A stretch of 64,000 nucleotides of DNA, from NCBI GenBank assembly GCA_035464655.1, contig DATHRZ010000012.1:4225-68224 (forward strand), given 5' to 3'. Source of the stretch: Gemmatimonadota bacterium (GTDB lineage: Bacteria > Gemmatimonadota > Gemmatimonadetes > Palauibacterales > Palauibacteraceae). A program made the translations under genes and the position numbers. The number at the start of each line of letters is the position of its first letter. Within the stretch, counting starts at the first letter, position 1. The notes under the pieces were generated by a model. That model did no database searches, had not been told where the DNA came from, and was given only the letters and a program-made list of their open reading frames with translations. Shown piece after piece: positions 1,994 to 48,180 of the stretch.

Positions 1994-3262
1994 TCATGGC
2001 AGGTCGAATCCGGTGGACGGCGTGAACACGATGCGCACGCGGGGAGCGCGCGCGGGATCTTCGCGATGGCCGAACTCCCAGTATGCCAGGCCCCCACCTT
2101 CGGGCAGCACCCGAACTCCCAGGTTGAGTTCCGGCATCGAGTCGGGATCGGAGGCCGCCCAGTTCTGGACCAGGGCAGTGATGGAAAGCTGGAGATCGCC
2201 TCCGGCCTCCATGTCCTCCGGCAAAATCTGCACCGGATTCGACGTGTTCACGCCGACCGGCGTCTTCGGACCGAACTCGAACGGGTTCGACAGCAGGCTG
2301 AAGATGCTCGCCAGCAGCGTGTCGGTCGTAGCGAAGGGCGCCGGCGGCGTACCCGTCGACGTCAACAGCAAAGTGGCCCGGTTGATTCGCGCGCCACGTA
2401 ATTCCACCCCGCTCAGCGACTCCGGCAACTCGAAGCTCACGTAGGTGCGGGCCGCGGGAAGCCCGCCGAGGCGCAGACCCGCTCCCGGCGCGGGCGTCGG
2501 CGGATCGAAGACGAAGGTGTTCGCCGTCGGCGAGCGCAGCGTCTCGACCAGGGTGTCGCGCCCGACCGGCTTCACGTCGAACGCGAGAACGACCTGCTCG
2601 ACCGCCAGCACGGTGCCGTCCACGGGGCTCAGCAGGGCGAGCCCGGTCCCGCCGTCGGCCGCGCGCCAGGCCCGGAGGAGCGAGTCCGTCTCGACGGTCA
2701 GGGGAAGAAACATGGTATCGGCGGCGAGTTCCTCGATCTCGAGGGCTCCCAGCAGTTCTCCCAGGTCCCCGCCCGGTGCCGTCCACGGATCGCCGTCCGC
2801 CGCGTTCGACCAGGTCGCCTCCCGGGTAACGAAGTCGCGGGTCAGGGCGTACGCCTCGACCGAGCCGCCGGCTTCCGGCACCTCCGAGCCTGTCGTATCG
2901 AAGACGAGGCGGAGGCGGCCCGACTCGAAGCGCTCGACGGCGAGGCGTTCCCCACCGACGAACACGGAATCGGGGAGAGTGCCGAATCGGGCGAGGATCC
3001 GCGCCCGGATGTCGGCCGTCTGAGCGACGAACTTGCTCGCGCTCGTCGCCGCAAGCGCGTAGTCGGTGTAGGTCGTATCGCGCCAGGCCGGAAGCTCCGT
3101 GGCCGACAGTTCGATCTCCACCGTCGCCTGGCCCGCGCCGGGGGCGGAGTCGGGGTCGACGCCGGTGAGCGTGTCCTCCGTGCAGGCCCCGATCGAAGCT
3201 GCGCCCAGTCCGGCGAGCAGCAATCCGACGGCGCGCTGATGTCGCGCGAGCGATCGTCTCAC
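1994..3262 (-). CDS. hypothetical lipoprotein
   Basis: GTG start ([27 protein letters not shown]); lipobox-like IGAC with Cys; overlaps the cdd stop by 4 nt; no recognisable catalytic motif. Confidence 0.5.
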
Positions 3263-3684
3263 GCGGCGTCTCCGCCGGTCGCCGCCTGGAGATCGAAGGC
3301 GGCCGGCAGCAGCTCCGAAAGCCTCCATGCGGCTTCGCTGCCCGAGGTTCCGCGACTCACGATCCGCAGTTCGCGGCTGAACTCCGCCAGGGCCTGGCGG
3401 CACATTCCGCAGGGAGCCACCGGCTGTGCGTCGTCGGAGCACAAGTAGAGTCGCTCGAAGTCCGTCGCGCCGTCCGCGACGGCGGCCCCGAGCGCGACGC
3501 GCTCGGCACAGATCGTCACCGGATAGGACGCGTTCTCGACGTTGCAGCCCGCGTACGTGCGGCCATCTGAGGCCTCGAGGGCGGCACCCACCCGGAAGCG
3601 CGAGTACGGCGCATAGGCGGCCCGCCTGGCCGCTTCGGCAGCCTCCCGCAGGGGCGTCCAGCTCTCGTCCGGCTCCACGTTCAT
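3259..3684 (-). CDS. cdd: cytidine deaminase
   Basis: Zinc-binding motifs C-A-E-R-V-A and P-C-G-M-C-R-Q; 141 aa from MNVEPDE. Confidence 0.85.
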
Positions 3685-3686
3685 CC

Positions 3687-4815
3687 TCACACGTCTCCGT
3701 CGATTGCGATTCTCGGTATCCGGGAACTCCACCCGGTCAGGATCTCGTAGGCGATCGTCCCGCACGCGTCGGCCAACTCCTCCGGCGTGATCTCGGCTTC
3801 CCCGTCGCGCCCGAGCACGGTCGCCACGTCCCCGGGCTCCACGTCGTCGCGACCGGTCACGTCGACCACCGTCGAGTCCATCGTGATGACGCCGCGCGTC
3901 GGAACGGAGCGCCCGTGAATCAGGGCCCGTCCGCGGCCCGTCAGGCAGCGACGCAGACCGTCGGCGTAGCCGATGCCCAGCGTCGCCAGCCGCGCCCGAC
4001 CCGGCGCCGTCCAGGTGGCGCCATAGCTGACCGTACTCCCCGGCTTCACGTCTCTCACCTCGAGCACCCGGGCCCGCACGTGCGCGACCGGCGCCGGACG
4101 CCGGTCCACGACCTCGGCGCCATACAGCCAGACGCCCGGGCGGACGAGATCACCTGCCACGCCGGAGTACTCCATTGCCGCCGCACTGTTCGCGGCATGG
4201 CACAGCCCGGGGTCGACGCCCGCCGCCCGAAGGGCCCCGATCGATTCGCCCAGGCGCCGCCATTGTTCACGCGTCGCGGCCTCGTCCGCCTCGGCCGAGT
4301 GAAAATGCGTGAACGTAGAGGCGAGCGTCGCGCCGCCCTCCCCGAGAATCGCAGCGACCCGGGGCGCGACGCGCGCGACCTCGTCCCACGGGATGCCGAA
4401 TCGTCCCATTCCCGTGTCGATCTCGAGGTGCACGGGAAGCCCGGCGCCGCGGGCCCGCGCTGCGGCCGCGCACGTCGCGAGCGCCGCCGGGCTGCCGACC
4501 ACGGGCTCGAACCCGGCGGCCAGCAGCGCCTCGAGGTCGGCCGGCAGGGTCGGCGTGAACACGACGACGCGACCGTCCCAACCGTCCTCGCGGACCCGCA
4601 CGGCTTCGTCCAGCGTCGCCACCCCGAACCCGTACGGATCGAGCGGACCGAGGGCCCGCACCGCCAGCCCGGCCCCCGTCCCGTACGCATCGGCTTTCAC
4701 CATGGGAAGCATCCGGCAGCCGGCGGGGATACGTTGGGCGATGGCGGTGTAGTTGGCTCTCAACGCGCGGCAGTCGACCTCCATCCAGGCGCGCCGCATC
4801 GGTTCGGTCGGCATG
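3687..4815 (-). CDS. alr: alanine racemase
   Basis: PLP-lysine region [10 protein letters not shown]; about 376 aa from ATG at 4815; the ORF-track extension to 5576 is antisense to mazG and rejected. Confidence 0.85.
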
Positions 4816-4907
4816 GTTTCCAAGCGGGCTAGTATACCGGCCCTCACAGGGAGGAGCAACAGATTTCCAGCGAATCGAGACATCCGCGTGGCGACGAACG
4901 GCGCCAC

Positions 4908-5726
4908 CTGGACCGGGCGGTCGACTCCGACGATAGGCTCGGGCGGGCCCTCGCGCTCGTCCGCTATCTGCGCGAGCACTGCGACTGGGACGCGCGACAG
5001 ACGCCCGACTCGCTGCTGCCCTACCTGCTCGAGGAGGCGAACGAGGTGGCCGACGCCGTGCGCCGGGCCGACGACGCCGAGCTTCCGGGCGAGCTCGGCG
5101 ACCTCCTGCTCAACCTGGCCTTTCAGATCGTCCTCGCCGAAGAGCGGCGGGCGTTCGGGGCCGCGGAGGTCGTGGCCGAGCTCGAGCGCAAAATGGTCGC
5201 CCGGCACCCGCACGTGTATGGCGATGCCGACGAAGCACCCGACTGGGAGCGCATGAAAGCCGGCGAGCGGGCCGAGCGGGCCGACGCCGGGAACGGGCGG
5301 CGCCGCGACCCGCTCGCCGGCGTTCCGGACGGCCTCGAGCCGCTGAGCCGTGCCCTGCGGGTGCAGGAACGGGCGGCGGGCGTCGGGTTCGACTGGCCCG
5401 ACGTGGCCGGCGCACTCGGCAAGCTGCGCGAAGAGATCGACGAGCTCGATGCCGTCGTCGACGGCCGGGCCGCCTCTCCCTCGTCGGCCGGCCCGCCGCC
5501 GTCCGCCGCCGTCGTCGACGAAGCCGGCGACCTCCTGTTCGCCGCCATCAACGTGTGCCGGCTGGCCGGCGTGCATCCGGCGGCGGCGCTCGCCGCCGCC
5601 ACCGATAAATTCGCCCGGCGCTTCCGGGCGGTGGCCGAGCGCTCCGGGGCCGCCGGCATCGACATGACGGCGGCCGACCTCGAGACCCTCGACCGGATGT
5701 GGGACGACGTGAAGCGGGGCGAGTGA
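4908..5726 (+). CDS. mazG: nucleoside triphosphate pyrophosphohydrolase MazG (5' end uncertain)
   Basis: MazG motifs RYLREHCDWDARQTPDSLLPYLLEEANEV and a second EEAGDLLFAAINV half-domain; homology starts about 45 codons upstream of the first canonical start (GTG at 5046) with no ATG/GTG/TTG in frame back to the TAG at 4830. Confidence 0.7.
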   Translation: MDRAVDSDDRLGRALALVRYLREHCDWDARQTPDSLLPYLLEEANEVADAVRRADDAELPGELGDLLLNLAFQIVLAEERRAFGAAEVVAELERKMVARHPHVYGDADEAPDWERMKAGERAERADAGNGRRRDPLAGVPDGLEPLSRALRVQERAAGVGFDWPDVAGALGKLREEIDELDAVVDGRAASPSSAGPPPSAAVVDEAGDLLFAAINVCRLAGVHPAAALAAATDKFARRFRAVAERSGAAGIDMTAADLETLDRMWDDVKRGE

Positions 5727-5729
5727 GCG

Positions 5730-6002
5730 CTACCGGTTGAGCAGCCGGACCTCGCGCTGCCCCTTCCGCACGGCGGTTCCGACCACGATGCCGAACACGA
5801 TGGCGGTTCCCGCGCCGAGCACGGGCAGCACCGCGACCACGGGCGACAGCGCGAGGGTCGAGGCGACGCCGGCGAGCCACGGCGTCGAACGCTTCTGAGC
5901 GGCGTCCACGAACCGCAGCCGTTCGCTGACGAAATCGCGGACCTTCATATAACTGATCCCCATCCCGGCGCCGGCGGCGGCCAGAAACAGAAACTCGATC
6001 AT
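5730..6002 (-). CDS. small hypothetical membrane protein
   Basis: Strong SD AAGGAGG 7 nt before ATG (MIEFLFLAAAGAG...); two predicted TM helices; 90 aa. Confidence 0.45.
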   Translation of the reverse strand: MIEFLFLAAAGAGMGISYMKVRDFVSERLRFVDAAQKRSTPWLAGVASTLALSPVVAVLPVLGAGTAIVFGIVVGTAVRKGQREVRLLNR

Positions 6003-6093
6003 GATGCGACCTCCTTTCGTCCACATCGTACGGGAGACGTTGGAGGAAAGTTGCAGGCCGTACGGCCCGATCATCTCGATATCACATCATATA

Positions 6094-7389
<1,296 letters not shown>

Positions 7390-33082: not shown

Positions 33083-33157
33083 TGGGCGAAGCAGGATTCG
33101 AACCTGCGACCTCCTGCTTGTAAGGCAGGCGCTCTGGACCAGCTGAGCTATTCGCCC
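33083..33157 (-). tRNA. tRNA-Val (anticodon UAC)
   Basis: Cloverleaf folded by hand: acceptor GGGCGAA/UUCGCCC, D-stem GCUC/GAGC, anticodon stem CCUGC/GCAGG with loop CUUACAA, T-arm GCAGG-UUCGAAU-CCUGC, discriminator A; CCA not encoded. Confidence 0.85.
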
Positions 33158-35894: not shown

Positions 35895-36269
35895 TCACCC
35901 GTTCTCCTCGCGCTCCTTGCAGGCGATGCACAGGCGCGTGTGCGGAAGCGCATCGAGCCGCTCGTAGGAAATCTCCTCGCCACACTCCTCACACGTACCG
36001 AACTTCGGTGGCGTCTTGTAGATTCGGCGCAACGCCTGGTCGAGATGGTACAGGTAGCGCCCTTCCTTGCTGGCGAACAGGAACGCCTTCTCACGTTCCA
36101 TGGCGTCGGTTCCCTGGTCGGCCATGTGAAAGCTGTACGCCGACGTCTCCCCTTCGGCCCCCGGGTTCACCTTGCTCAGGGCCTCGTCGTAGGCGCCGAG
36201 GTCCTTCAGCGCGCGCGCCCGCATCTCGAGCAGTCGCTCCTCGAAGTATTCCAGGTCCTTCTTATTCAT
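35895..36269 (-). CDS. DksA/TraR family C4-type zinc-finger protein
   Basis: CxxC...CxxC (CEECGEEI...CIACK); coiled-coil N-terminus; 124 aa; at the position of Bacillus ylyA. Confidence 0.75.
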   Translation of the reverse strand: MNKKDLEYFEERLLEMRARALKDLGAYDEALSKVNPGAEGETSAYSFHMADQGTDAMEREKAFLFASKEGRYLYHLDQALRRIYKTPPKFGTCEECGEEISYERLDALPHTRLCIACKEREENG

Positions 36270-36291: not shown

Positions 36292-39200
36292 CTATGAGCG
36301 TCTGCCGGCGTCGTCCGGCACGCCGACGGCGTCCGTCGCCACCTCGAGTCCTATCCCGACCACCTCACCGTCGACGTCGACCTCGCGCGTGATGTCCAGG
36401 GCGTCGACGGCGTCCGATCCGATGGCCAGAGAAACGGCCAGCGTCTCACCGCCGATGTACGCCTCGTGCGCCCGGACCGTTTCCTCGATCGCCGGCGCGC
36501 CTGCGACCGCCAGGCGGATCCGGTCGCTGACGGCCAGTCCGGCATCGCGCCGAAGTCGCTGTACGCGGTTCACGATCTCTCGCGCCAGTCCCTCGGCCCG
36601 CAACTCGTCGTCCAGCGTCGTGTCGAGGCCGACGAGCCATCCGTCGGCCGCCTGCACGACCAGGTCTCCCGCCGCCTCCTCGAGAACCTGCACGTCGTCC
36701 GGTCCGATTTCGACGCGGCGGTCGTCGAACTCGACCTCGATCTGCCCTCCGTCGCGCAATCGGCGGACGGCGTCGCCCTCGAGGGCCGCGATCGCGCCGG
36801 CCACAGCGGGCGTGTCCGAGCTGAACCGCGGGCCGAGGGCACCGAAGTCCGGTTTCGCGGACAGCCGAACAATATCATCGTCACCGGCGCTCAGGACAAC
36901 GCGCCTGACGTTGAGCTCGGTGCGCAGCAGATCGACGAAGGCGTCGGCGAGGCGCCGTCCGTCCGGCAGCACCGCGCGCAGTTCTCCGAGCGGCTGCCGA
37001 ACACGGAGTCCGGCCTCTTCGCGCGCCGCCCGGCCCAGTGTGGCGAGCCGCCGGACATCGTCCATCCCCTGCTCGATCGACGGATCGACGTTCGGCGATC
37101 CGCCCGGAAAGTCCGCCAGGTGCACCGACTCGCCGACCAGCTCCCTGTGCATCCAATCGGGCAGAAACGGCGCGATCGGGGCTAGCAGGCGGCAGGCCAC
37201 CACCAGCGCGTGGTGGAGGGTGGCGAAGGCGTCGACCGTGTCCTGCGCCCCGGCCTCCCCACCCCTTGTCGCCCAGAATCGCTCGCGCGTCAGGCGGATG
37301 TACCAGTTCGAAAGGTCGTCCTGAACGTATGTCGATATCGTCCGCGCCGCCCACGTGAGGTCGTAGTCGGCGAGCGCGCCGCGTACCTCGGCGGCCACCG
37401 CGTCGGTGCGGCCGAGCAGCCAGCGGTCGATCAGCGGCCGCTCGGACGCCGGCCGCGCGGCGCCCACAGAGTCGTCGTGCCGCCACCCCTCGAGCTCGGC
37501 GTACATCGCGAAGAACCGGTAGGCGCTGCGCAGCGTGTCGAACATCTTGCGGTTCGTCTCTCGCAGGCCTGCCGCGTCCCAGCGCTTCGGCAGCCACGGA
37601 TTGCTCGACGCCAGCAGGTAGAACCGGAGGACGTCGGCGCCGTGCTCGGCCAGCGTCTCCCACGGATCGACGACGTTTCCACGCGACTTCGACATCTTCT
37701 GGCCCGAATCGTCGAGAATCAGGTCGTTGACCAGCACGTTCCGGTAGGCGCCTCGGTCGAACAGGATCGTCGACAGGGCGAGCAGCGAGTAGAACCAGCC
37801 ACGTGTCTGGTCGACCCCCTCGGCGATCGCGTTTGCGGGGAAGTGCGTCTCGAACCGCTCGCGGTTCTCGAACGGAAAGTGCCACTGGGCGAACGGCATC
37901 GAGCCCGAATCGAACCACGCGTCGAGTACCTGCGGAACGCGGGTCATCGTACCGCCACAGCCGTCGGACCGGCACGGCCACGTGAGTCCGTCGATCTCCG
38001 GGCGATGCGGATCGAACCCGTCCCCGCCGCCCGGCAGGTCGCCGGCGCGGGCGGCCAGGTCGTCGAACGAGCCGATGACCTCGCGCGCCTCGCAGGCGCC
38101 GCACAGCCAGATCGGGAGTGGGGTCCCCCAGTAGCGATCGCGCGAGATCGCCCAGTCGATGTTTCCCTTCAGCCACTCGCCCATGCGCCCCGAGCCGATC
38201 TCGGGGGGATGCCAGTCGACGGCGGCGTTCTCCTCCATCATGCGCTGCCTGACCCCGGTCGTTCGTACGTACCACGAGTCGCGGGCCATGTAGATCAGCG
38301 CCGTGTCGCAACGCCAGCAGTGCGGGTAGTTGTGGCGGAACGACTCGCGGCGGAACATCAGGCCCCTCTCTTCGAGCAGGTCCTGCAGGCGCCCGTCCGC
38401 TTCCTTCACTCGCTCTCCGCCGACTTCGAGCACATCGGGCAGGAACCGGCCGGCGTCGTCGACGGGTCGGACCACGGGCAGGTCGAAGGTCCGGCCGAAC
38501 TCGAAGTCGTCCGCACCGAACGCGGGCGCCGTGTGAACGAGCCCCGTTCCGTCCTCGTCGCTGACGAAGTCGGCCGGGAGAACGCGGCCGGTGGGCACGT
38601 CGTAAGACGGGACGAGCCGGAGGGGGCGTTCGTATTCGAGCTCTTCCAGCTCGTCGGCCCCGACTTCGCGCGCGATCGTCGCGTCTTCGCCGAAGTAGTA
38701 CGCGACGCGCGAGCGCGCGAGGACGTATCGCCCGCCCTCGTGCTCGACCTCGACGTAACCGACGTCGGGCCCGAAGGCGACCGCCGTGTTCGACACCAGC
38801 GTCCAGGGCGTCGTCGTCCAGACGAGCAGCCAACGATCGGCCGCCCCGGCCACGGCGAAGCGAACCGTGATCGACGGATCCGTGCGATCGCGGTAGCCCT
38901 GGGCGACCTCGTGGCTCGACAGGCCGGTTCCGCAGCGCGGGCAGTACGGCAGCACCTTGTAACCCAGGTATAGCAGGCCCTTGCGTTCGATTTCCGACAG
39001 GGCCCACCACACCGACTCGATGTATTCCGGCGAGCAGGTGATGTACGGATCGTCGTAGTCCAGCCAGTAGCCGATGCGCTGCGACAGGCGCTCCCAGTCC
39101 TCCTTGTAGGTGAACAGGTTGTCGCGACACACGCGGTTGAACTCGGCGATGCCCATCTTCTCGATATCCGGCTTGCCGGAGATCCCGAGCAGCTTCTCGA

Positions 39201-39483
39201 CCTCGAGCTCGACGGGCAGACCGTGCGTGTCCCAACCCGCTTTGCGGGTCACGTGGTGGCCGGTCATGGCCGCGAAGCGCGCGATCGTGTCCTTGAGCGT
39301 GCGCGACATCACGTGGTGCACGCCCGGGCGGCCGTTGGCGGTCGGCGGCCCCTCGTAGAACACGAACTCGGGGGCGCCCTCACGCCGCTCGAGGCCGAGG
39401 CCGAACGTGTCTTCGGTCTCCCAGCGCTCGAGGATCTCGCGCTCCAGCGCCTCGATCGTCTCCGGCAGGGTCCGGTATGTCAT
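36292..39483 (-). CDS. ileS: isoleucine--tRNA ligase
   Basis: Class I aaRS; KMSKS present; editing and Zn-finger C-terminal domains; 1063 aa. Confidence 0.95.
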   Translation of the reverse strand: MTYRTLPETIEALEREILERWETEDTFGLGLERREGAPEFVFYEGPPTANGRPGVHHVMSRTLKDTIARFAAMTGHHVTRKAGWDTHGLPVELEVEKLLGISGKPDIEKMGIAEFNRVCRDNLFTYKEDWERLSQRIGYWLDYDDPYITCSPEYIESVWWALSEIERKGLLYLGYKVLPYCPRCGTGLSSHEVAQGYRDRTDPSITVRFAVAGAADRWLLVWTTTPWTLVSNTAVAFGPDVGYVEVEHEGGRYVLARSRVAYYFGEDATIAREVGADELEELEYERPLRLVPSYDVPTGRVLPADFVSDEDGTGLVHTAPAFGADDFEFGRTFDLPVVRPVDDAGRFLPDVLEVGGERVKEADGRLQDLLEERGLMFRRESFRHNYPHCWRCDTALIYMARDSWYVRTTGVRQRMMEENAAVDWHPPEIGSGRMGEWLKGNIDWAISRDRYWGTPLPIWLCGACEAREVIGSFDDLAARAGDLPGGGDGFDPHRPEIDGLTWPCRSDGCGGTMTRVPQVLDAWFDSGSMPFAQWHFPFENRERFETHFPANAIAEGVDQTRGWFYSLLALSTILFDRGAYRNVLVNDLILDDSGQKMSKSRGNVVDPWETLAEHGADVLRFYLLASSNPWLPKRWDAAGLRETNRKMFDTLRSAYRFFAMYAELEGWRHDDSVGAARPASERPLIDRWLLGRTDAVAAEVRGALADYDLTWAARTISTYVQDDLSNWYIRLTRERFWATRGGEAGAQDTVDAFATLHHALVVACRLLAPIAPFLPDWMHRELVGESVHLADFPGGSPNVDPSIEQGMDDVRRLATLGRAAREEAGLRVRQPLGELRAVLPDGRRLADAFVDLLRTELNVRRVVLSAGDDDIVRLSAKPDFGALGPRFSSDTPAVAGAIAALEGDAVRRLRDGGQIEVEFDDRRVEIGPDDVQVLEEAAGDLVVQAADGWLVGLDTTLDDELRAEGLAREIVNRVQRLRRDAGLAVSDRIRLAVAGAPAIEETVRAHEAYIGGETLAVSLAIGSDAVDALDITREVDVDGEVVGIGLEVATDAVGVPDDAGRRS

Positions 39484-40115
39484 TCGCCGGCCGCTCCCGA
39501 AATCCCCGCGAGGGCCGCGAGGGCCTCGCGCACCAGACCGTCGAGCGTCTCCGCTTCGTCCGGCAGTTCGGTACCCATCGTCAGCAGCGCCAGCCCGGCA
39601 ACGCGCCGACCGGCGTGGCGCGCCGTGATGGCTTCATGGACGAACCCCTCGCTTGCCATATCGGCGCCCACCATGCGGAGCATCTCGAGTTCGGCTGCCG
39701 TCCGCGTCGTGCCGGCGACGCCGCTCACGACCCCCTCCTGCAGAACGATGCCCGCCGCCACGGCCCGCTCGCGAATCGCCCGGCGCAGGGCCGGGTCCCA
39801 GGCGTCGGTCAGGTCGGGAAACCGGAGGCCCCATTCGTCGGCGTTGGGTCCGACGAGCGGGTTCTCGCCAGTGAGGTTGATGTGATCGGCGACGAGGGCG
39901 AACAGCGCCCCGGAACGCGCCCAGTCGGGCCGCACCGGAATCGCGCGTTCGACGAGTAGCAAGGTGTCGACACCCCGCCCGAACATCTCGCGTACGGCGG
40001 CTGCACGGACCGCCGCCGTTTCGCCGGGCACACGCACCAGGGTTTCACCGGCCTCGGAAGCGGCCGCGCCGGGCCCGCCGGGTAGATCCGGTCCGAATAC
40101 CACACCGACGCTCAT
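39480..40115 (-). CDS. PNP/MTAP-family protein, N-terminally degenerate (probable non-catalytic)
   Basis: C-terminal 150 aa match trimeric purine nucleoside phosphorylases (ADHINLTGENPLVGPN, RFPDLTDAWD, MVGADMASEG); the phosphate loop GSGLG is replaced by GPDLPG and about 50 aa are missing; 4-nt overlaps with divIVA and ileS. Confidence 0.5.
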   Translation of the reverse strand: MSVGVVFGPDLPGGPGAAASEAGETLVRVPGETAAVRAAAVREMFGRGVDTLLLVERAIPVRPDWARSGALFALVADHINLTGENPLVGPNADEWGLRFPDLTDAWDPALRRAIRERAVAAGIVLQEGVVSGVAGTTRTAAELEMLRMVGADMASEGFVHEAITARHAGRRVAGLALLTMGTELPDEAETLDGLVREALAALAGISGAAGE

Positions 40116-40660
40116 GCGCCCGCGCCGGTGTGCTCCGGAACGTCGCCGCCGGACTCCTTCGGTTCCACCCCTTCGATCGTCGCCGGCGTGTCGTCTTCCG
40201 CGGCGAGGCGCTTCTCCTCCTGCTCGATCTCTCCGAGGAAGCGCTCGAGCGAACCGCGGAGAGAACGCAGAAACCCGGCGCGGCGAACCTTCAGCTCCTC
40301 GAGCGTCCGCCGTGCCGCGTCGGTCGCCGCCTCCGCGCGCTGGCGGATCGCGGCCGCCTCCTGTTCCGCCTCGCGCAAGCGCAGGTCGGCGCCCTTCTCG
40401 GCCTGCGCGCGGGCCTCCTCGCGAAGCTCCTGGGCCGACACGAGGGCCTCGTTCAGTGCCCGTTCGCGCTCCTCGAACGCGGTCAGGCGCTCACGCAGTG
40501 CCGCGATCTCGCCCTGCTGGCGCTTGTCGCGCTGCACCAGCTCGTCGAGGCGCTCGCCGCACATCTCGAGGAACGCCTCGACCTGGGACGGCTCGTAGCC
40601 ACGAACGACCCGCTTGAAGTCGTCCTTCTTCTTCCGCACGTCGAGCGGAGTGAGCTCCAT
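40112..40660 (-). CDS. divIVA: DivIVA domain protein
   Basis: N-terminal LTPLDVRKKKDDFKRVVRGYEPSQVEAFLE DivIVA motif; coiled coil; 182 aa. Confidence 0.8.
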   Translation of the reverse strand: MELTPLDVRKKKDDFKRVVRGYEPSQVEAFLEMCGERLDELVQRDKRQQGEIAALRERLTAFEERERALNEALVSAQELREEARAQAEKGADLRLREAEQEAAAIRQRAEAATDAARRTLEELKVRRAGFLRSLRGSLERFLGEIEQEEKRLAAEDDTPATIEGVEPKESGGDVPEHTGAGA

Positions 40661-41367
40661 CAGTCTGGTCTTTCTCCCAGCAGGGCCGTTCCGAGCCGGA
40701 CCTGCGTCGCGCCTTCTTCCACGGCGATCTCGAAATCGCCGCTCATGCCCATGGACAGCTCCGAACCGTCGAAACCCGAAAGCCGCTCGCGGCAGGCTTC
40801 GAGGCAGCGCCGCGTCCGTCCGAACACCTCGCGCAGCTCGCCCTCGCTCGCCTCGAACGGAGCCATCGTCATCAACCCGCGCACGCGCAGGCGCGGCATG
40901 GCGTGAATCGCCCCGACCGCCTCGACGGCGGCCGCCACGTCGAACCCTCCCTTCGACGCCTCGCCGGACGCGTTCACCTGGACGAGTACCGGAAGCTCCG
41001 CTCGTCCGATCGACTCGGCGTCGGCCGACAGGCGCCGGGCGAGCCGCAACGAATCGACGGAACCGATACGGTCGAACAGCCCGACGGCGCGCGCCGCCTT
41101 GTTCCGCTGCAAATGCCCGATCATCTGCCAGGAGACGTCCGCCGCGAGATCTCCCAGCTCCTCGTGCTTTCGTTCGGCTTCGCCCACGCGGTTTTCGCCG
41201 ACGGCGGAGAAGCCGGCTCCGACCACCAGTCGAACCACCGATGCCGGAAAGCCCTTGGTCACCGGCAGGATGTCGACGTCGGACGGATCGCGCCCCGCTC
41301 GACGGGCGGCTTCGGCCACCGCCGCGCGCACCTCTTCCGTACGTTCTCTCAGTTCGGACTCGTTCAC
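40660..41367 (-). CDS. yggS: YggS family pyridoxal phosphate homeostasis protein
   Basis: ILPVTKGFP (PLP lysine); alanine racemase N-terminal TIM fold; TGATG junction with divIVA. Confidence 0.8.
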   Translation of the reverse strand: MNESELRERTEEVRAAVAEAARRAGRDPSDVDILPVTKGFPASVVRLVVGAGFSAVGENRVGEAERKHEELGDLAADVSWQMIGHLQRNKAARAVGLFDRIGSVDSLRLARRLSADAESIGRAELPVLVQVNASGEASKGGFDVAAAVEAVGAIHAMPRLRVRGLMTMAPFEASEGELREVFGRTRRCLEACRERLSGFDGSELSMGMSGDFEIAVEEGATQVRLGTALLGERPD

Positions 41368-41491
41368 GGCGCGGAGTCTACCGGGCGGCACGCCGGGCGG
41401 CAACGCGAGCGAGCGCGAAACGCCGACGGGGCCGCCGGCGTATCGCCCGCGGCCCCGTCGCTGCTCGGACTGTCGTGCGCCTCGCTCGGCG

Positions 41492-43827: not shown

Positions 43828-44685
43828 TCAGGACGCAGTCTCCCGCTCCGCCGATCGGGCGGCGGCGCGCGCTTCCGGCGCCGGTTCGACACGCCCTGAG
43901 GCCCCCGCCGTCCGGCCGGGTTCCTCGGATTGCAGGCGCCGGCGCAGCTCCTCGGGCTTCAGGTCGCGGACCAGCAGCCCGCGGTGGGCGAGGGAGATCT
44001 GCCCGGTCTCTTCGGAGATCACTACGACAAGGGCGTCCGTCTCCTCCGACAGCCCGATCGCGGCGCGATGCCGGGTACCCATGGTTCGATCGATGAGCGG
44101 CGACTGCGACAGCCGGAGGATGACGGCCGCCGCCGAAGCGACCCGATCCTGGCGAACGATCACCGCGCCGTCGTGCAGCGGCGAATACGGCGAGAAGATC
44201 GTGGCGAGCAGCTCGGGCGAGATCTCGGCATCGAGCGGCGTTCCGTTGTCGACGTGCGCCGTGAGGTCGACTTCGCGCTGGACGGCGATGATCCCACCGA
44301 TCTTCGCCTTCGCCAGGCGGTCGGCGGCGTCGACGATCGCGTCGAACACCTGCTCGCGCTCCTGGGTGGCGAACAGCCGGAACCAGCGCGTGCGGCCGAG
44401 CCGCGCCAGCGCGGTGCGCAGCTCCTGCTGGAAGATCACGATCAGGGCGAAGGCGCCGTATGTGAACACCTGCGACAGCAGGTAGGGAACCAGCCGGAGC
44501 TGCAGGGCCTGCGAGATCGCGTAGACGCTGACCAGGACGACGAAACCGATCAGGACCTGAAACGCGCGCGTCCCGGCATAGGCGACGAGCAGACGATAGA
44601 CGAGATACGACACGACGACGATCTCGATGACGTCGGTCCAGTCGAGCCTCAGAAAGCCGAGATACTCGAGAATCCCCTGCAGCAT
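43828..44685 (-). CDS. cdaA: membrane-anchored diadenylate cyclase (c-di-AMP synthase) CdaA
   Basis: Three N-terminal TM helices; DAC-domain motifs HDGAVIV and GTRHRAAIGLSEETDA. Confidence 0.8.
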   Translation of the reverse strand: MLQGILEYLGFLRLDWTDVIEIVVVSYLVYRLLVAYAGTRAFQVLIGFVVLVSVYAISQALQLRLVPYLLSQVFTYGAFALIVIFQQELRTALARLGRTRWFRLFATQEREQVFDAIVDAADRLAKAKIGGIIAVQREVDLTAHVDNGTPLDAEISPELLATIFSPYSPLHDGAVIVRQDRVASAAAVILRLSQSPLIDRTMGTRHRAAIGLSEETDALVVVISEETGQISLAHRGLLVRDLKPEELRRRLQSEEPGRTAGASGRVEPAPEARAAARSAERETAS

Positions 44686-47589: not shown

Positions 47590-48180
47590 TCAGAGTCCCG
47601 CCACGAACGGCAGGTGGCGGAAATCCTCCGCGTGATCGAGGCCGTAGCCGACCAGAAACTCCGGGGGCGCGTCGAAACCGGTCCAGCGCGGCTCGAGCTG
47701 CAGGTCGGTCGCCAGGTGCTTGTGCAACAATGCGCACAACTCCAGCGACTTCGGTTCGCGCTTGTCCAGGGCTTCGGCCAAACGGTTCACCGTATTGCCG
47801 CTGTCGACGATATCCTCGACGAGCAACACGTGCCGGTCGGCGATCGGCGCCATCGGATCGTACAGGAGTCTAACATTTCCGGACGAAGTTGTTCCCGATC
47901 CGTAGCTCGAGGCGACGATGAAATCGACGTGGAGCGGCCGGTTGATCGCCCGGACCAGGTCCGCCAGAAAGATGAACGATCCCTTCAGAAGGCCGAGAAC
48001 GAGCAGGTCTTCACCGGGCGGGTAGTACCGGGTGATCTCGGTCGCTATCTCCCGCACCCGTTGCTGGATCTGATCCGCGGAGTAGATGATGCGGGCCTGG
48101 TCCCGGTCGCCAGCGTCCGTGAGCCAGTGCCCCTCGGGAAGGGGTCCCGTTTCGATCTGCTCGTGCGCCGCGTCAGCCAT
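47590..48180 (-). CDS. hpt: hypoxanthine-guanine phosphoribosyltransferase
   Basis: PRPP-binding VLLVEDIVDSGNT; 196 aa. Confidence 0.9.
   Translation of the reverse strand: MADAAHEQIETGPLPEGHWLTDAGDRDQARIIYSADQIQQRVREIATEITRYYPPGEDLLVLGLLKGSFIFLADLVRAINRPLHVDFIVASSYGSGTTSSGNVRLLYDPMAPIADRHVLLVEDIVDSGNTVNRLAEALDKREPKSLELCALLHKHLATDLQLEPRWTGFDAPPEFLVGYGLDHAEDFRHLPFVAGL

Follow-up and report, generated by a model that had tools for sequence, protein, structure and literature searches.

A run of genes that holds divIVA and ileS in a bacterium of the Gemmatimonadota raises the question of why a protein related to purine nucleoside phosphorylase (PNP), shorter than that enzyme and stripped of most of its catalytic residues, should be encoded between them. 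The gene lies in a stretch of 64,000 nucleotides from contig DATHRZ010000012.1 of assembly GCA_035464655.1 (positions 4,225 to 68,224), the whole of which was analyzed and is called the window here; its product, of 211 residues, is referred to below as the mini-PNP. An initial annotation, made from the letters of the window, described a degenerate PNP homologue recruited into a slot that is otherwise empty. The analysis presented here suggests that the mini-PNP is likely to be a pseudoenzyme that evolved in place, with a non-catalytic and probably oligomeric role.

Fold and active site of the mini-PNP

The homology to PNP proposed in the initial annotation is borne out by both profile and structure comparisons. 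Residues 73-180 of the mini-PNP match positions 92-198 of the 233 in the PF01048 profile with an E-value of 1.7e-13 (51 bits, against a gathering threshold of 25.1), and a Pfam scan of the protein at E-values up to 1 returned this family only, with no match to DUF152 (Cu-oxidase_4). PNPs of the PDB align to residues 40-180, with an E-value of 9e-26 to 8swu. An AlphaFold2 (AF2) model of the monomer, built from a family alignment of 55 sequences, is confident and well packed, with a predicted local distance difference test (pLDDT) score of 88 and a predicted template-modelling score (pTM) of 0.88. The top 50 matches of this model in a Foldseek search of the PDB are all trimeric PNPs (probability 1.00; E-values down to 5e-16), with template-modelling (TM) scores for the query of 0.66-0.79, and of 0.73-0.79 for the best of them. 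Low pLDDT values are confined to residues 81-100 (73 and 56), as would be expected of a segment at a subunit interface.

The fold is thus predicted to be that of the trimeric NP-I PNPs (PunA/PNPH/XapA; PF01048, TIGR01697; structures 8swu, 4m1e, 6tk9 and the human enzyme). The mini-PNP has 40-49% identity to these proteins over residues 40-190, and has in common with them the DHINL-G-NPL-GPN...RFP loop that contains Phe159, together with the EG, AE, GAD and ARH core motifs. In contrast to the trimeric PNPs, which are ~260-290 residues long, it is about 60-75 residues shorter, is without the N-terminal helix, a hairpin and the His257 loop, and attains roughly half the score that the NCBIfam cut-offs require (TIGR01697, 109.9 against 197.1; PRK08202, 111.9 against 218; TIGR01700, 97 against 293); the NCBIfam PNP models that score 110-112 bits span only profile positions 95-237 of 274. 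Taken together, the alignments and the model indicate a genuine PNP homologue with a compact alpha/beta PNP core.

For the comparison of active-site residues, 69 short relatives, 49 full-length PNPs and human PNP were aligned, and positions are given in human numbering; the numbering of the human reference sequence was spot-checked by hand only at Ser33 and around Phe159. Ten of twelve contacts are lost or deleted across the 69 members of the mini family, while they are essentially invariant in the full-length PNPs; the survivors are Arg84 (54 of 69) and Phe159 (68 of 69). In the protein of the window His64, His86, Phe200 and His257 are deleted, Tyr88 is replaced by Val29, Ala116 by Arg57, Gly118 by Ile, Glu201 by Arg138, Met219-Ser220-Thr221 by Glu156-Gly157-Phe158 and Asn243 by Met180. 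Arg84 is kept as R28, and Phe159, which acts in the neighboring subunit, as F99. Among the phosphate contacts (Ser/Thr33, His64, Arg84, His86, Ala116 and Ser220) Arg84 alone is therefore left in this protein, and none of the ribose and base contacts (Tyr88, Phe/Leu200, Glu201, Met219, Asn/Asp243 and His257) is retained; an intact set of phosphate- and ribose-binding residues, which would have spoken for a working enzyme, was looked for in this alignment and not found. The remnant of the phosphate loop recognized in the initial annotation, VVFGPDLPGG, is confirmed, with Pro9 at the place of Ser33. Of the other motifs quoted there, RFPDLTDAWD corresponds to residues 98-107 of the mini-PNP and a further one to residues 76-91.

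The same annotation had some 50 residues, carrying the conserved His and Tyr contacts, missing as one block. Those contacts are indeed gone, but the missing residues fall at three sites, with ~25 residues absent from the N-terminus, ~30 from an internal position and ~15 from a C-terminal loop. The elements deleted are the N-terminal helix, the beta2-beta4 hairpin (His64/His86/Tyr88) between the phosphate loop and Arg84, and the His257 loop; in the alignment they leave an N-terminal gap and two more, over human residues 39-80 and 244-258. This residue pattern predicts a protein that is unable to bind phosphate, ribose or base as PNP does, in which canonical PNP chemistry would be precluded and no phosphorolysis is to be expected.

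Distribution, ancestry and selection

A word-indexed search gave ~70 clusters of 204-225 residues with 43-89% identity to the mini-PNP, the named ones being from Gemmatimonadota metagenome-assembled genomes (MAGs), and after these came full-length PNPs at 49% identity or less. In an exhaustive hidden Markov model (HMM) search of 1.84 billion representatives, the end-to-end matches were three clusters at 50% identity, beyond which the score drops from 222 to 158 bits. The carriers comprise six GTDB species representatives, all of them Gemmatimonadota MAGs, and 10 JGI metagenome contigs. When orthologues were sought at the same position, as the initial annotation had proposed, the order divIVA-mini-ileS was found wherever flanks exist, in the six GTDB species, three further contigs and the 10 JGI loci. 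The mini-PNP stop overlaps the ileS start as ATGA in all 17 mini-PNP loci that have data there, and the four-nucleotide overlap between divIVA and the mini-PNP recurs in L001, L006, L081 and L095-L100. The mini-PNP family is small, coherent, rare and restricted to one clade of the Gemmatimonadota. A protein of 237 residues recovered in the HMM search (P0414) has an internal deletion of the His64-to-Tyr88 segment with its other catalytic motifs intact; it could reflect a separate partial truncation, or else an error of assembly.

Sister lineages were found by using the well-conserved DksA-like neighbor of ileS as a probe and then examining the contigs of distant relatives. Intact PNPs, with all catalytic residues present (273-286 residues), occupy the slot in L084 (276 residues), L087 (P0097, 277 residues), L088 (P0328, Gemmatimonadaceae, 286 residues), L089 (P0345, Gemmatimonadales, 273 residues) and L094 (277 residues). 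Full-length, catalytically degenerate forms are found in L085 (P0241, 264 residues) and in L090 (P0362, 265 residues, followed by ileS), and a second short degenerate form in L091 (P0373, 201 residues). In L092 (L092:2144-5831) a dead full-length PNP of 276 residues, P0363, adjoins divIVA, after yggS, and is followed by thrA, not ileS. The slot is empty in L086 (L086:3926-7938) and in L093, where the stop of divIVA (3194-3733) overlaps the start of ileS (3730-6957) by 4 nt.

These loci alter the way in which the gene has to be read. In Bacillus the order is ylmE...divIVA-ileS-ylyA-lspA-rluD, with no gene known to lie between divIVA and ileS. Bacillus is the wrong reference for this slot, and the relevant comparison is with other Gemmatimonadota, which recurrently hold an intact PNP there; the proposal that the protein was recruited into a normally empty slot is for this reason abandoned. 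The intact slot PNPs share the position and the flanks of the mini-PNP (yggS-divIVA-X-ileS-dksA-like-lspA-rluD), as well as the ATGA in L087 and L089, and are ~46% identical to it in the shared region. The dead forms P0241, P0362, P0363 and P0373 likewise stand after divIVA, those in L085, L090 and L091 preceding ileS, and are degenerate in their catalytic residues at the same positions as the mini-PNP; P0241, P0362 and P0363 (264-276 residues) differ from it in retaining the N-terminal helix and the hairpin. The presence of intact, full-length dead and short forms in the same slot argues that the enzyme died and shrank in place, with no import. The active site appears to have died in several lineages, with the gene staying beside divIVA, and once without ileS.

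Four loci with a full-length gene (L085, L087, L089 and L090) also have the ATGA onto ileS, as does the second short form, L091; in L088 and L094 the PNP gene abuts ileS with no such overlap. A large family of full-length dead intermediates resembling that of L085 was not found: the L085 form is essentially a singleton, with its next match at 42% identity, and P0241, P0362, P0363 and P0373 are each singletons or near-singletons in the databases. P0373, at ~47% identity to the mini form, may be an independent truncation. In L084 (L084:4763-7986, on a 317-kb ENA contig) the PNP gene is intact and both ileS and divIVA are fragmented, which looks like assembly frameshift errors. The DivIVA of L092, at 608 residues, has a very long acidic tail, and the adjacency of DivIVA and PNP persists in that locus without ileS.

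A neighbor-joining tree recovers the mini family as a single clade (100% bootstrap) and places the remaining degenerate forms with it at 56-81%. The intact slot PNPs share a Thr33/Cys117/Leu200/Asp243 signature, while the PNPs that Gemmatimonadota encode outside the slot (L045, L059, L064) and those of the metagenomic contigs L117 and L172 are of a Ser33/Asn243/His257 type, indicating that there are two PNP paralogue types in the phylum. Asp243 is also the change engineered in human PNP E201Q/N243D, which was crystallized with adenine-type ligands (PDB 3ggs, 3gb9). As judged from these residues, the slot enzyme may prefer 6-aminopurine nucleosides.

Selection was assessed from ratios of non-synonymous to synonymous divergence (dN/dS), obtained by the Nei-Gojobori method on trimmed coding sequences. 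In the least saturated pair, the window and L081 (synonymous divergence, dS, ~0.42), dN/dS is 0.21 for the mini-PNP, compared with 0.27 for yggS, 0.15 for divIVA, 0.105 for ileS and 0.05 for the DksA-like gene; more distant pairs, in which dS is saturated, give 0.16-0.36. The mini-PNP is clearly under purifying selection, with a ratio similar to those of yggS and divIVA. Across 55 sequences of the family, at 40-88% identity, 23 columns are invariant, and nearly all of the invariant residues are core or interface positions common to ordinary PNPs. In the block ADH(I/L)NLTGdNPLVGPN..WGPRFPDLTDAWDP (residues 76-108) nearly every position is at least 90% conserved among 55-69 members. The equivalent loop of trimeric PNPs takes Phe159 into the active site of the neighboring subunit. 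The label of pseudoenzyme given in the initial annotation thus fits a protein whose active-site residues are destroyed and which is conserved under purifying selection.

Operon context and flanking genes

The 211-residue frame, and its overlaps of 4 nt with the divIVA stop and the ileS start, are as the initial annotation had them: both junctions read ATGA directly in the sequence. The identities proposed for the neighbors, YggS, DivIVA, IleS, the DksA-like protein and LspA, were also confirmed, by domain and family matches. The positions of these and other features are collected in the table.

Table. Features of the window discussed in the text (positions in the window, 5' to 3' on the forward strand)
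Feature	Position	Strand	Basis or remark
Mini-PNP coding sequence, 211 residues, ATG start; PNP-fold protein, predicted to be catalytically dead	39480..40115	-	Longest open reading frame (ORF); PF01048 match
Mini-PNP residues 5-14, VVFGPDLPGG; remnant of beta1 and the G-S/T-G-L-G phosphate loop	40074..40103	-	Alignment with canonical PNPs
Mini-PNP residues 76-108, ADHINLTGENPLVGPNADEWGLRFPDLTDAWDP; best-conserved block, equivalent to human PNP 133-168	39792..39890	-	
Mini-PNP residues 148-157, MVGADMASEG; former GAD-x-V-G-M-S, with G218-M219-S220 changed to S-E-G	39645..39674	-	Alignment
ATGA overlap, divIVA stop and mini-PNP start	40112..40115	-	Direct sequence reading
ATGA overlap, mini-PNP stop and ileS start (translational coupling)	39480..39483	-	Direct sequence reading
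divIVA, 182 residues; operon partner upstream	40112..40660	-	PF05103, E 2.5e-25; syntenic in related loci with enough flank
ileS, 1063 residues; operon partner downstream	36292..39483	-	ORF and synteny
yggS/ylmE-type gene for a pyridoxal phosphate-binding protein; opens the tight yggS-divIVA-X-ileS run	40660..41403	-	TIGR00044, 168.8 bits (cut-off, 106)
DksA/YteA-like zinc-finger gene, 3' of ileS	35895..36269	-	Family and profile matches
tRNA-Val (anticodon TAC), single	33083..33157	-	5' of mraZ; flanked by the TPR gene and by a small ORF that follows the Peptidase_MA_2 gene
tonB, longest ORF, 301 residues	41492..42397	-	Overlaps exbD; L081 orthologue called at 223 residues
cdaA, cyclic di-adenosine monophosphate (c-di-AMP) synthase	43828..44685	-	
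folP, longest ORF, 354 residues	44696..45760	-	L081 orthologue called at 262 residues
ftsH, 665 residues	45573..47570	-	No intein-splicing match
HPRT-type phosphoribosyltransferase	47590..48180	-	

On the 3' side the minus-strand run continues from the DksA-like gene into lspA, after which, by synteny with L081, come rluD, the Peptidase_MA_2 gene and the TPR gene, and then mraZ-rsmH-ftsI. The ileS orthologue in L081 has tRNA-synt_1, Anticodon_1 and DUF5915 domains. The G+C content of the window is 69%. Scans with Rfam and for tRNAs, promoters and terminators found nothing at the mini-PNP gene, the promoter-like and terminator-like matches being no more numerous than expected from shuffled sequence.

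Ahead of yggS, the same strand carries tilS, the HPRT-type gene, ftsH, folP, cdaA and exbB-exbD-exbD-tonB. A purine-salvage gene and the gene for a synthase of a purine-derived second messenger both therefore lie less than 8 kb from the dead PNP. The true starts of TonB and FolP in the window are probably internal to their longest ORFs. The FtsH of L081 (L081:1208-4552) has 1114 residues and an intein-splicing match inside its AAA domain.

Possible functions and their implications

Our reading of these observations is that the ancestor carried an intact PNP gene between divIVA and ileS, of which the mini-PNP would be the positional orthologue. In the clade of the window the active site would have been lost first, and about 60-70 residues thereafter, leaving a PNP core and above all the interface loop with Phe159. 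The pattern of conservation points to a non-catalytic function, and the mini-PNP would most probably act as an oligomeric binding or scaffolding protein, with a partner that belongs to the yggS-divIVA-X-ileS operon or is expressed together with it. Such a role could be the continuation of a second one already held by the intact slot PNP; that this enzyme had a second role before catalysis was lost is speculative.

A number of points weigh against this account. The role proposed is drawn from conservation. The gene is absent in L086 and L093, and any non-catalytic role is therefore not essential throughout the phylum. In the tree, the degenerate forms and the intact Asp243-type slot PNPs are joined at only 42% bootstrap, such that their orthology rests mainly on synteny, and long-branch attraction could be partly behind the clustering of the degenerate forms. 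Since dS is near saturation in most pairs, the ratio from the window and L081 is the only reliable one. Non-synonymous divergence of the mini-PNP is ~2.1 times that of ileS (0.271 against 0.130, window and L001), so that it evolves faster than ileS, in contrast to the intact slot PNPs, which change more slowly, at ~0.7 times the ileS value; constraint on the mini-PNP is thus relaxed, though far from absent.

The simplest challenge to an in-place pseudoenzyme is that a wrong start, a frameshift or a mis-assembly masks a full-length PNP. No stop codon interrupts the frame for 125 codons 5' of the mini-PNP ATG, which would leave room for an extension, but this segment contains no ATG, GTG or TTG and is an Arg/Gly-rich, out-of-frame reading of divIVA. 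Searches with tblastn, using intact and dead PNPs as queries, found neither the missing parts in other frames nor a second PNP in the 64-kb window, and the architecture of 204-225 residues recurs in ~70 independent clusters and 20 loci. The chance of such an artefact is vanishingly small. As the initial annotation had held, a wrong start is improbable; the absence of an upstream start codon, and of PNP remnants from the other frames and the rest of the window, shows that the short length is real. An upstream extension or frameshift hiding a full-length PNP was also considered as a candidate and is refuted, the open frame being without a start codon or similarity to PNP. A functionless 'spacer' would be another way to account for the gene: translation of ileS would need ribosomes that end at the ATGA, and the protein itself would be irrelevant and decaying. 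The universal ATGA onto ileS in the mini loci, the progressive shrinkage, the absence of the gene from L086 and L093, with a divIVA-ileS overlap in the latter, and the rate of change relative to ileS are all compatible with such a spacer. We nevertheless consider it very unlikely, given a dN/dS of 0.21 and not of ~1, a length held at 204-225 residues with 23 invariant columns and long motifs kept down to 40% identity, a confident and well-packed model, and the case of L093, which illustrates that a spacer needs no 211 codons.

Other explanations grant the protein a function and differ as to its nature. The mini-PNP could regulate an active PNP paralogue, the product of a gene elsewhere in the genome, by joining it in a 'prozyme'-like heteromer, in which it would lend its Phe159 loop to a neighbor's active site, its own being dead, and so tune purine salvage. 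That this interface loop, the most conserved block, is present in 68 of 69 members would fit such an arrangement, as would the second PNP type (Ser33/Asn243/His257), which is found outside the slot in L045, L059, L064 and L117, the L117 paralogue coming from the same metagenome as the mini locus L098. It is unlikely all the same, since the 64-kb window holds no second PNP and the interface may differ in a protein without the N-terminal helix and the beta2-beta4 hairpin. A neo-functionalized enzyme or small-molecule sensor, in which the re-lined site (Arg57, Arg138, Glu156, Gly157-Phe158 and PVRPDW) receives a different, probably anionic, ligand, is improbable too. The family-specific changes in the pocket could be cited in its support (E201 to R in 59, S220-T221 to G-F in 68 and A116 to R in 48 of the 69 members), along with the CdaA and the DksA-like factor encoded in the neighborhood. 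Yet the replacement residues are poorly kept, Arg57 being present in 48 of 69 members, Arg138 in 59 and Glu156 in 37, and they vary in the deeper branches (P0056, P0062, P0064, P0071 and P0361), which have D, V, E, A or S at position 57, S, H or G at 138 and T, D, S or R at 156. Moreover, the invariant residues are nearly all core or interface positions shared with PNPs, and the deletions remove about one third of the pocket wall. The idea of a new, conserved pocket for a ligand was rejected because of this variation in the deeper branches, and as the substrate pocket is unconserved across the family, ligand sensing there is unlikely.

In a broader form of the proposal that the mini-PNP is a pseudoenzyme with an oligomeric role, the PNP fold placed after divIVA would serve a second function, separate from catalysis and linked either to DivIVA or to the coupled ileS, and this function, not phosphorolysis, would be what selection preserves. 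This is rather unlikely as things stand; the protein might, for instance, be a scaffold at the pole or septum, or connect purine or translation status to division as an adaptor. If true, the proposal would explain why the active site died in several lineages (two short forms and at least three full-length dead forms, one of these beside divIVA without ileS) with both the interface loop and the place in the operon kept, and the mini-PNP would be a minimal 'interaction-only' PNP module.

The mini-PNP is neither a new kind of system nor one with an established mechanism. Like pseudoenzymes in general, it is an enzyme homologue maintained by purifying selection after the loss of its catalytic residues; the trimeric PNP family and pseudoenzymes are already known, and what is new is a truncated dead derivative of PNP. 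A search of the full-text literature found no paper on a PNP pseudoenzyme, and a literature search for divIVA in Gemmatimonadetes found none on that subject. In Firmicutes and Actinobacteria, the ylm-divIVA cluster has YlmD (DUF152, FAMIN family) beside ylmE, and YlmD/YfiH proteins convert adenosine, methylthioadenosine (MTA) and inosine to their free bases, with purine-nucleoside phosphorylase and deaminase activities (PMC6978800). The mini-PNP resembles them in being a purine-nucleoside-related protein linked to yggS/ylmE and divIVA. The resemblance is one of analogy, not homology: unlike YlmD, the mini-PNP has an unrelated fold, stands after divIVA and not before ylmE, and is without catalytic residues.

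Several members of the mini family are labelled 'purine nucleoside phosphorylase', a mis-annotation that would falsely credit these MAGs with purine salvage. The slot offers a natural series within a single coupled operon position, from intact enzyme through full-length dead and truncated dead forms to loss of the gene, and is useful for the study of how pseudoenzymes originate and are retained. It also raises the question of a role beyond catalysis for a PNP linked to divIVA and ileS, which parallels the unexplained linkage of YlmD, ylmE and divIVA in Gram-positive bacteria (PMC6978800).

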